Part shown: piece after piece, positions 15,986 to 17,695 of the stretch | Position numbering within the stretch: position 1 is the stretch's first letter | Layout: every line of letters begins with the position of its first letter | DNA from: Escherichia phage ALITA | Length of the DNA: 64,000 nucleotides | Sequence record: PP359570 | Direction: 5' to 3' (one strand) | Made by a program: the position numbers and the translations under genes | The notes under the pieces: generated by a model | Database searches by the model: none | What the model was told of the DNA's origin: nothing | What the model saw: only the letters and a program-made list of their open reading frames with translations

Positions 15986-16185
15986 CCTAAATAAAGATGA
16001 TAGCTTTTACCTATCAAAAACGTTCACCGAAAAAAGTGAATAGATCGCGGTATCGAACTAATCAAGCAACAGATGAACAACCATACCATGAAGGTCATAA
16101 GGCGCTTACAACGTGTTTTAGACCGCTTATTTTTAATTTCTTCATGTAACTATCTGGCAAAAACAGCCTTTTTCTTGTCTTTCCT

Positions 16186-16267
16186 CTTAAATGATAATCA
16201 TTCTTATTTATAGCTGATTATTTATGCAATTTATTGCATAATGCAATAATGATAATCATTCCTAACT
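16186..16267. promoter_or_regulatory. two Fur-box-like motifs
   Basis: AAATGATAATCATTCTTATT and AATAATGATAATCATTCCT; approx. Confidence 0.4.
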
Positions 16268-16269
16268 TA

Positions 16270-16555
16270 AGACCATCTAACCTATAAAATAATAAGTTAT
16301 CTAACTAAATTAAAACTAATTATCTCACTTTTATTTATAACTTACTGTTACTATCTCATTGATAACCTTATATTAAACAACAATAACTAATATAAATCAT
16401 TACTAAGCTAAATATAATCTATCTAACCCTTAAAACTACAATTATAATCTATCTAATTGTTGCACAAAGTAACTATTAAATTGTTAGTAACATTACTAAA
16501 TAATTCACATCCTATCTATTTATGATCTAATCTTTACCTTTCTATCTATTACCTA
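16270..16555. repeat. dispersed ~9 copies of (T/C)ATCT(A/C)W(T/C) motif, incl. ATAATCTATCTAA twice 20 bp apart
   Basis: ccatctaacc, gttatctaact, ataatctatctaaccc, ataatctatctaattg, cctatctattt, ttctatctatt; no ORFs. Confidence 0.5.
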
Positions 16556-16648
16556 AATAACCATTTCATACAGTAATTATTCCATATGGTAATCATTTCA
16601 TACAATAATTATAACAAGAAATATAATTCGCAAGCGTATCATTAGCAG

Positions 16649-16814
16649 CCTATGCCGGACACATAGGCGGCTAATAATAACGCAACTACACACCCCACAT
16701 AATAACCATCAACGATGGTTATTATTTGTGTTTATGTAGCTTGCAACAATTGCAAGCGCAACAATATACATGGTATATTGTATTCCCTTACATTGTTGCG
16801 GTGCGTTATTATTA
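16649..16814. other. nested inverted-repeat structure (outer 12-bp stem enclosing hairpins); candidate structured ncRNA or origin element
   Basis: gcctatg-ccggaca-cataggc; aataaccatc-aac-gatggttatt; gcttgcaa-caa-ttgcaagc; outer gctaataataac ... gttattattagc; approx. Confidence 0.4.
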
Positions 16815-17117
16815 GCTAATGTTTAGAACATTGGCTATAATATAAGCTGCATATAATAAACTATGCAATAATAAACATGGTGAATAATGACACCGATGAT
16901 CATAATGCGCCACCCTCCAGGGGGCGCTATGTAAACACAAAGAAATCTTTCTTGTCAAGAAAATATTGCCACTATTGCGCAAAATTATTTTTATCTGAAT
17001 AGATGATTTTTCATACTATTGCCCCTATAACATACCTCATTTGTTGAGCCTACTTTCTTAAAAGCGCAATAAATCAGAATTATCTTGATTTTTAGGGCGT
17101 TTTATAGTACAGAAAGT

Positions 17118-17142
17118 ATGCAAATGATAATCATTATCAGCT
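17118..17142. promoter_or_regulatory. Fur-box-like motif (closest to consensus)
   Basis: cAAATGATAATCATTATCag: 16 contiguous bases identical to the Fur consensus core; approx. Confidence 0.45.
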
Positions 17143-17299
17143 ATCTTCCACGGGTAGCACTATTTCACGCCAGATCATTTCATTTGGCAAGGTGTATATA
17201 GATGTTTAGACTTGCCAAGCCATTGATTTACTTAGAATTTATCTGTTTTGTTGTGAGTAATACCTTTCTTACTCAGAAAATAATCAAAAGTCTTATAAG

Positions 17300-17341
17300 T
17301 CATTGAATGATAATACAAATGATAATTATTCTCATTGATAT
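17300..17341. promoter_or_regulatory. Fur-box-like motif pair
   Basis: gAATGATAATacAAATGATAATTATTCTCATTgata; approx. Confidence 0.35.
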
Positions 17342-17695
17342 TTGAGGGGGACGGTCGGCAGAAATCGGGGGGCGCTGAAAATCGCGTTAAGCACCTCTCG
17401 CAAGCGAGCAGTATTTTGCGGCAAGTTATTGATATTATTGACTTTACGCTTATGAAAAGGGGGTGTGTCGAAATAAATCGGGTATACCGGAAAATTTTTG
17501 TGGCATAGATATTTATTTGTCTATATTATGTACAAAGGGGTGTATTAAAAATAATAGGTATATATAGAATAATTGATAGGGAAATCCTATACTAATCCCT
17601 CCATTAATGATGTTTCTATGTTGCTGTTATTGTAATAGATGAAAAGACGCTGTATGATGTGTGGCATGAAACGTAAACTTATAAAGGAGTCTGAT

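Follow-up and report, generated by a model that had tools for sequence, protein, structure and literature searches.

The DNA analysed here, hereafter the window, is a stretch of 64 000 nucleotides from Escherichia phage ALITA (sequence record PP359570), and our subject is its large untranslated gap at positions 15943-17695, in which a nested multi-hairpin element lies close to a direct terminal repeat (DTR). The closest megablast matches to 15900-17700 (74 phage records matched) belong to Justusliebigvirus, a group of phi92-like myophages of ~146 kb within the subfamily Stephanstirmvirinae; their identity is 94-95%. Relatives with annotation show the gap bordered on one side by the homologue of gp248, the gene that comes last in the phi92 record (15559-15942 in the window, within the right-end gene block), and on the other by homologues of phi92 gp001-006, the first real gene starting from the ATG at 17696. 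The position of the gap is also the point at which the phi92 reference genome is opened. Just 3' of the gp248 homologue, an intrinsic terminator closing the right-end gene block was found by the terminator scan at 15958-15976 (+ strand); it is kept in all members of a five-genome alignment (the window, Schickermooser, ZCKP1, KP13-26 and phiWec190), and the records of Paula, Schickermooser and phAPEC8 also carry a terminator annotation there. An earlier note on this DNA, made from the letters alone, had drawn the non-coding region at 15990-17640 and placed it at the junction of two early-gene blocks. Its non-coding character was upheld while its extent was too short, and what meets there are the physical genome ends with their DTR, both of which the note had missed. 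Also in agreement with that note, no credible open reading frame (ORF) was found: the four small ORFs of the gap had no match among PHROG families, the one at 15997-16149 is interrupted by a 1-nt indel in relatives in the five-genome alignment, and a tRNA/tmRNA scan gave no match.

The DTR was located by alignment to Salmonella phage UAB_1 and to BME3 and by the phi92 annotation, and occupies 343 bp at 17047-17389 (+ strand) as a single collapsed copy. The annotated left and right 343-bp DTRs of UAB_1 are identical to each other and align to exactly this interval, while the last 343 bp of the phi92 type record are annotated as PHI92_DTR-R, so that the repeat itself is already known. BME3, whose packaging was analysed with PhageTerm, is reported to have DTRs of 342 bp (PMC12210895), and this repeat aligns to 17047-17388. 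Stephanstirmvirinae genomes have been described as ending in DTRs (2025 paper, PMC12695924), and in Schickermooser, which belongs to another genus, the first and last 329 bp of the record are identical and carry the same edge words. No second DTR copy was found in the window, and the assembly must therefore have been circularly joined or permuted. The gap is thus securely identified as the meeting point of the physical right and left ends, and consists of an untranslated right-end tail (15943-17046), the collapsed DTR (17047-17389) and a leader of the left-end genes (17390-17695). Part of the junction is oddly present once more near one end of the BME3 record, from which only the 342-bp repeat was used here.

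Both edges of the DTR are marked by conserved words. The left edge word, TGTTG^AGC at 17042-17049 (+ strand; the genome left end starting at 17047), is invariant in the five genomes, is unique on the + strand of the window and marks the first DTR base in UAB_1, phi92 and Schickermooser; the PHB05 record stops where its match reaches ~17046 of the window. The right edge word, CGCGTTA^AGC at 17383-17392 (+ strand; the genome right end being 17389), was defined from the five-genome alignment and the end of Schickermooser, the record of which ends exactly at ...CGCGTTA, and it is kept as CGCGTTNAGC wherever sequences reach. Across the compared genomes of several lineages the edges are thus kept as TGTTG^AGC (left) and CGCGTTN^AGC (right). 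Because GTTR^AGC is found at both edges, and also in the other genus represented by Schickermooser, we regard it as a candidate terminase cut motif. In KP13-26, Citrobacter phage Tr1 and WPEC4 the left-edge word is present as TGTTGAGC in two to three copies, 58-69 nt apart (loci L010, 2163-2306; L028, 1720-1794; and L030, 1665-1730, respectively).

Upstream of the DTR lies the nested multi-hairpin element (16639-16818), built from a stem-loop and, 3' of it, a long stem around three arms. Hairpin A (16647-16654/16662-16669) stands directly 5' of the outer stem (16670-16684/16802-16816), which is 15 bp long and 100% complementary. Inside it are a CTAC/GTAG helix (16686-16689/16736-16739), identified with RNAalifold, hairpin B (16699-16710/16714-16725), hairpin C (16740-16746/16750-16756), helix F (16757-16761/16796-16800) and hairpin D (16762-16769/16773-16780), the last being restricted to Justusliebigvirus. 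An outer stem had been proposed before, as 12 bp at 16649-16814; the stem exists but is longer, and the three enclosed hairpins that had been predicted are present at 16699-16725, 16739-16757 and 16762-16780. When folded as single-stranded DNA, a 185-nt segment reached -47.6 kcal/mol on the + strand (z -9.6) and -49.3 kcal/mol on the - strand (z -10.7), which bears out the nested hairpins of the earlier note. In most genomes the element precedes the start of the DTR by 190-275 nt (about 230 nt in ALITA); it lies ~570 bp from the physical right end and is the sole part of the gap that blastn can align in the most distant Phapecoctavirus records (~76-81% identity).

Selection for base pairing in this hairpin cluster is evident from an alignment of 18 distinct versions taken from Justusliebigvirus, Phapecoctavirus, the KP13-26 group, Citrobacter phage Tr1 and IMG/VR contigs. 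Paired cells amounted to 94.2%, against 22-49% when the partners were slid, and two-sided changes were seen in 14 pairs (57 cells), compared with 8.3 +/- 1.2 pairs in shuffles, none of 500 of which reached the observed number; the covariation score was 0.165, against at most 0.04 in slid controls. The outer stem is Watson-Crick paired in 18/18 sequences and covaries at four positions, with variants ACGCA/TGCGT, AGCCA/TGGCT, CCGCA/TGCGG, ACACA/TGTGT and AATAT/ATATT. Hairpin B retains a stem of 9-12 bp despite very different sequences (ATAACCATC, ATTACTATT, GAAACTATT and GGAATAATC). The same fold was independently returned by RNAalifold, which added the CTAC/GTAG helix. A search of IMG/VR for palindromic words with hairpin C gave mostly chance matches; about five of the 14 loci were large phage contigs, four of which carry the element.

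Such covariation supports pairing equally well for RNA and for single-stranded DNA. G.U pairs occupy only seven of 907 cells when the + strand is read and nine when the - strand is read, with none in the outer stem, mismatches are split between both strands, and the attempt to assign the element to one strand by its wobble pairs showed no preference. Because G.U pairs are nearly absent and neither strand is preferred, we favour a DNA-level structure that would fold when single-stranded, rather than an RNA. As the arms of the outer stem are 117 nt apart in ALITA (117-217 nt over both families considered here), ordinary cruciform extrusion is not expected and the element should fold in single-stranded DNA only; it would therefore most likely act on a displaced or unreplicated strand.

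A counterpart was found in a sister subfamily. A search with gp248 homologues led to Vequintavirinae-type loci (KNP2, 4MG, PVP-SE1, Mydo and Csp-D17), the large non-coding gap of which contains an element of unrelated sequence and the same topology, with an outer stem around three arms. This stem is 18-21 bp long, is perfectly complementary in 7/7 genomes with its arms 164-217 nt apart, and shows four compensatory or covarying pairs with no G.U at all. The Stephanstirmvirinae covariance model (R1) misses this counterpart even with filters off, and the two elements are therefore either analogous or too diverged in sequence for homology to be called. In Klebsiella phage KNP2 the element occupies 5775-5983 of locus L039, and it was also seen in loci L036, L037 and L040-L043. 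Its first arm in Vequintavirinae is a palindrome resembling a Fur box, with the form AAATGATAA-N4-TTATCATTT in PVP-SE1. In Salmonella phage SEW_6S (PQ002171; loci L040 and L045) the first and last 91 bp are identical, an overlap that begins 1 nt past the arm of the outer stem and closes with the arm word, GTGTTATAGTGTC, in its third copy, and that is either a true short terminal repeat or an assembly overlap. This phage is filed under Demerecviridae, though the region aligns closely with that of PVP-SE1 (Seunavirus).

In relatives of ALITA, the stretch that separates the hairpin element from the terminal repeat is further marked by the hexamer ATTAGC, of which their gaps hold 6-13 copies, against about one expected, mostly in one orientation (KP13-26, L010, 1831-2020; also L029, L028 and L008). 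ATTAGC often falls within TTATTAGC, the word of the outer-stem arm, and also forms the bases of stems, and the arm words recur downstream in relatives as extra direct copies. The ATTAGC array is a candidate protein-binding array.

The gap is also rich in Fur-type boxes, which had been noticed before and proved both enriched and kept across relatives. The motif AATGATAATCATT occurs exactly at 16190, 16248 and 17123 and with one mismatch at 17318, and allowing up to two mismatches the window holds 27 matches, compared with 6.0 +/- 2.8 in shuffles. Similarly, 24 sites matching the Escherichia coli Fur consensus at 14 or more of 19 positions were found in the window, against 5.9 +/- 2.5 in shuffles. 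Eleven of these 24 fall into two clusters, one in a second non-coding region (5325-5401) and the other here, at 16187, 16245, 17120, 17315 and 17321 (14-17/19 matches). Sites 1 and 2 (16187-16205 and 16245-16263) flank the palindrome ATGCAA-N4-TTGCAT (16224-16239), site 1 being kept in Phapecoctavirus and KP13-26. Site 3 (17120-17138), inside the DTR, is the best of all with 17/19 consensus positions and a perfect GATAAT-C-ATTATC core at 17126-17138, and is kept as AAATAATAATCATTCTC in Phapecoctavirus. Site 4 (17315-17339; GATAAT-T-ATTCTC), also inside the DTR, is kept in Phapecoctavirus and KP13-26. Since two boxes lie inside the DTR, they are present at both ends of the mature genome. The terminal gaps of relatives show the same excess of consensus sites over expectation (Schickermooser, 9 against 0.17; KP13-26, 6 against 0.30; PVP-SE1, 5 against 0.15; Tr1, 4 against 0.25; and the 4MG locus, gap plus flanks, 8 against 0.33). 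No Fur box was found at the T7 ends.

The same boxes are clustered in a T5-like phage. In T5_ev219 (LR597655, ~9.85-10.37 kb; L044, 1455-1975) six sites reach 14/19 or more, against 0.25 expected (e.g. AAATGAGAATCATTCTCATTT), and the cluster lies where the left terminal repeat ends on its inner side, in untranslated DNA. Davison's analysis of this T5 region (preprint) describes palindromes and DnaA boxes and leaves Fur unmentioned, and a literature search for a link between Fur boxes and either phi92-like phages or T5 returned no relevant paper. Compared with the E. coli Fur operator (the iron box, GATAATGATAATCATTATC), the phage sites share 14-17/19 positions, with one perfect core, and are clustered, as are the operators at Fur-regulated promoters (PMC2189734). 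They differ in being placed in terminal non-coding DNA instead of an iron-uptake promoter, with no promoter overlap found. For the boxes within the repeat and next to it, host Fur is the most likely ligand.

Taken together, we consider it fairly probable that the region carries cis-acting signals for the recognition and processing of genome ends during packaging, with host Fur possibly bound. A terminase would recognise the region in concatemers and nick at the two GTTR^AGC words, after which strand-displacement synthesis, proposed also for T7-type phages, would duplicate the repeat. Exposed on the displaced or unreplicated strand, the nested element would provide a recognition or processing structure, or a priming site. 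The role of Fur could be that of an operator protein at promoters near the ends, or that of a host factor with an architectural function. Fur boxes in multicopy are known to titrate Fur in vivo, an effect on which the Fur titration assay is built, and the Fur-type boxes of the phage would do likewise once its copy number is high.

Several points weigh against this interpretation. The DTR is assigned to ALITA itself only by homology, at ~95%, and with four copies of ATTAGC in the ALITA window the array argument rests on relatives. Terminase, primase and Fur are proposed as ligands from the sequence, the element could serve replication instead of packaging (roles that are compatible), and the ends cut at GTTR^AGC could be either blunt or staggered. 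Finally, template-switch 'correction' could partly maintain perfect inverted repeats in place of selection.

A close parallel for the packaging reading is the concatemer junction of T7 and T3, which likewise has a short exact direct terminal repeat flanked on either side by untranslated DNA. Next to the terminal repeat stands an array of short strand-asymmetric repeats (in T7, about 12 copies of CCTAAAG at nt 175-341, spaced by 13 nt), and both ends have promoters nearby. For T7, a hairpin DNA intermediate has been proposed for the duplication of the repeat (Chung, Nardone and Hinkle, 1990, cited in PMC4281155 and PMC4925675). The differences are also clear: ALITA-type phages are myoviruses of ~146 kb in which T7-type RNA polymerase promoters are not evident, their terminal repeat measures 343 bp against 160 bp in T7, a conserved stem-loop plus four-way junction with a 15-bp long-range pairing takes the place of a simple quasi-palindrome, the T7 ends are without Fur boxes, and there is no sequence homology. 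Short protein-binding repeat arrays are also found by the cleavage site in lambda cosB and P1 pac, lambda using host IHF. Their equivalents here would be the ATTAGC arrays of relatives and the Fur-type boxes, whereas the ends in the present case are direct repeats, neither cohesive nor headful, and no homology exists.

We put forward a wider pair of proposals jointly, and only tentatively. First, a nested structure that forms in single strands only, near the DTR, and that compensatory changes have preserved in Stephanstirmvirinae as well as in Vequintavirinae, would be an essential cis element for making or replicating the ends of rV5/phi92-type genomes. Second, the unrelated phi92-like, PVP-SE1-like and T5-like phages would cluster Fur operators at their terminal-repeat boundaries in order to recruit or titrate Fur, either as an architectural factor in packaging or ejection or as an iron-sensing switch.

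A replication origin is one rival explanation, in which the G-poor zone would be the unwinding element, the hairpins a single-strand priming signal, and the Fur boxes a replacement for DnaA or IHF sites; we think it rather unlikely, though it is compatible with end processing. The zone in question (16270-16560, + strand), read as iterons in the earlier note, contains 11 G in 291 nt and nine WATCTMW cores. An AT-rich tract of the kind expected of an unwinding element is indeed present, with a GC content of 0.21-0.24 at 16150-16650, and both GC and G are at their lowest of the whole 64 kb; a G-poor top strand is common to relatives (G 8-12%). The strongly folding element, confined to single-stranded DNA, also suits an origin. 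Chung and Hinkle are said to have found in 1990 that a T7 origin was needed with the concatemer junction for the packaging of plasmids, and secondary origins reportedly lie at the T7 genome ends, which offers a parallel. Signals of similar build are also familiar from the complementary-strand origins of G4 and M13, the single-strand origins (sso) of plasmids and the inverted terminal repeat of adeno-associated virus (AAV), which measure ~150-200 nt, are active as single strands and place an outer stem around smaller hairpins. The ALITA element is predicted from its sequence to share this outer-stem-plus-hairpins design, but those signals belong to single-stranded replicons or lie at termini, while it is internal in a double-stranded genome.

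The repeats themselves speak against an origin. Of the approximately nine copies of a ATCTATCTAA-like motif that had been claimed, the zone has two exact and one with a single mismatch, and the 10-mer is not enriched window-wide; the part that recurs is the short WATCTMW core (5-7 nt), with nine copies against 1.9 +/- 1.2 in shuffles of the zone, irregularly spaced (23, 31, 64, 4, 26, 4, 63 and 30 nt), and the count of the top 6-mer is unremarkable (P = 0.28). Neither is the zone sequence conserved, as it is not kept across genera and is partly deleted in Phapecoctavirus in the five-genome alignment. An iteron-type origin was accordingly rejected, there being no regular repeats of ~17-22 bp, only the 5-7-nt core, and no iterons kept in relatives. 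DnaA boxes, a possible sign of an origin raised by the earlier note, were not enriched: none was exact, five had one mismatch in 1.65 kb, and the window-wide rate was no higher than in shuffles. Further arguments against an origin are that no initiator gene adjoins the region, that the GC skew here reflects the G-poor zone only, and that another non-coding region (4890-5560) is an equally good candidate. The 18-bp direct repeat previously noticed is real and belongs to a tandem array with a 16-nt period and 3.4 copies (16556-16609, + strand), annotated as repeat_region in inny and arall, the copy number of which differs among close relatives (identity 0.61 in that 50-nt bin).

Control of early transcription is a further rival, and again a doubtful one. 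Host-RNA-polymerase promoters would lie here under Fur operators and respond to iron, and the hairpins would serve as terminators or insulators against read-through across the junction. Some of the evidence is in keeping with this: up to 17/19 positions of a Fur box agree with the E. coli operator consensus, T7 early promoters are clustered just inside the left repeat, hairpin B is followed by a T-rich tract that was flagged as terminator-like, and the left-end leader (17390-17695, + strand) contains conserved motifs that make it a candidate promoter region. A GGGGTGT..AAATAAT motif is repeated in this leader at 17457-17481 and 17534-17558, and its last copy (17534) is followed by the block GGTATATATAGAATAATTGATAGGGAA, which is kept in Phapecoctavirus. 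In the extended form GGGGTGT..AAATAAT.GG, three copies were observed, at 17344, 17457 and 17534 (17344-17590). Sigma-70-like matches, on the other hand, were not enriched in the 2.5 kb scanned (11, against 13.9 expected in shuffles); one of them, a weak rightward match, TTGGCA-17-TAGACT, lies inside the DTR (17184-17212, + strand). Placement of the Fur boxes over -10/-35 pairs by eye was unsuccessful, with no box covering a convincing pair, the upstream operon is already closed by the good terminator at 15958-15976, and termination does not need a covarying 15-bp long-range stem.

An RNA origin of the fold, i.e. a structured non-coding RNA of ~180 nt transcribed from 16639-16818, is improbable. 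It would account for the covariation-backed multi-branch fold, for the strong folding z-scores and for the invariant unpaired motifs of the element (CCGGACA, CAACTACAC and CGCTTACA). However, the covariance-model search that the earlier note had proposed gave no Rfam match (14000-20000, E <= 1), and the sigma-70 and terminator scans, taken with the five-genome alignment, revealed neither a conserved sigma-70 promoter nor a 3' terminator around the element. Wobble pairs make up at most about 1% of cells and are missing from the outer stems of 15-21 bp in both families, the mismatches are divided between the strands, and the extra direct copies of the arm words downstream in relatives fit DNA-binding sites better. 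Of the origin or structured-RNA architecture originally suggested for the region, its non-coding, structured and cis-acting nature therefore stands, while the iteron reading fell and a non-coding RNA is disfavoured.

A T5-like injection pause, in which DNA entry would stop at an untranslated block of repeats and palindromes on the repeat boundary and resume once early proteins had been made, recalls the Fur-like boxes of the T5 region (six against 0.25 expected) but is very improbable, as the 343-bp DTR is gene-free and a pause would expose no left-end early genes, the paired DnaA boxes of T5 are absent, and no report of two-step injection in phi92-like phages was found. The likeness to Repeat Region 3 of T5, its injection stop signal, is nonetheless close in layout: a non-coding block of ~1.2-1.7 kb sits astride the boundary of terminal repeat and unique DNA, carries the same Fur-type boxes and, here as in T5, is a long untranslated repeat and palindrome block with its order kept. 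The T5 repeat, by contrast, measures ~10 kb and includes the pre-early genes, and two-step injection is not known for phi92-like phages.

The literature that was searched appears to contain no description of the nested element or its counterpart in Vequintavirinae, of the cut-site word, or of Fur boxes at terminal-repeat boundaries, including that of T5. The recognition, cutting and duplication of ends in myoviruses with short exact DTRs are essentially unstudied outside T7-like podoviruses, and the present region yields a GTTR^AGC word, a DNA structure defined by covariation, to which a sister subfamily has an independent counterpart, and Fur-type operators shared with the T5 boundary. Records of the phi92-like group have been opened at arbitrary points, and recognition of the end junction fixes coordinates and removes false genes. 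If Fur does bind, end handling or early expression of these phages would be tied to the iron status of the host, a link that would be relevant to the therapeutic use of phi92-like phages in iron-limited body sites.

The second non-coding region mentioned above (4890-5560) has the second-lowest GC of the window. It contains a 67-bp tandem repeat in two copies (5103-5233), with a third, degenerate copy discernible by eye, and five to six Fur-box-like sites (5325-5420), including the perfect palindrome AAATGAGAA-TTT-TTCTCATTT, followed by a GC-rich hairpin, making it a candidate rival origin or regulatory hub. Its last part, 5420-5560, is kept at 82-88% even in Vequintavirinae (SSE121 and EspYZU14), far above its surroundings, and could be a conserved RNA or a protein-binding site.

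Two observations concern gene content at the junction. The first gene past the terminal repeat (17696-18065), a homologue of UAB1_gp001 (121 aa), carries a frameshift at an A10 run (17831-17840) that is A6 in UAB_1, and the run is either a homopolymer sequencing error or a true slippage-prone tract. In the records of relatives such as Nernie, VivaForever, J-01 and Antha, 8-11 'hypothetical proteins' are annotated within the gap, and these are probably over-calls of gene finders.

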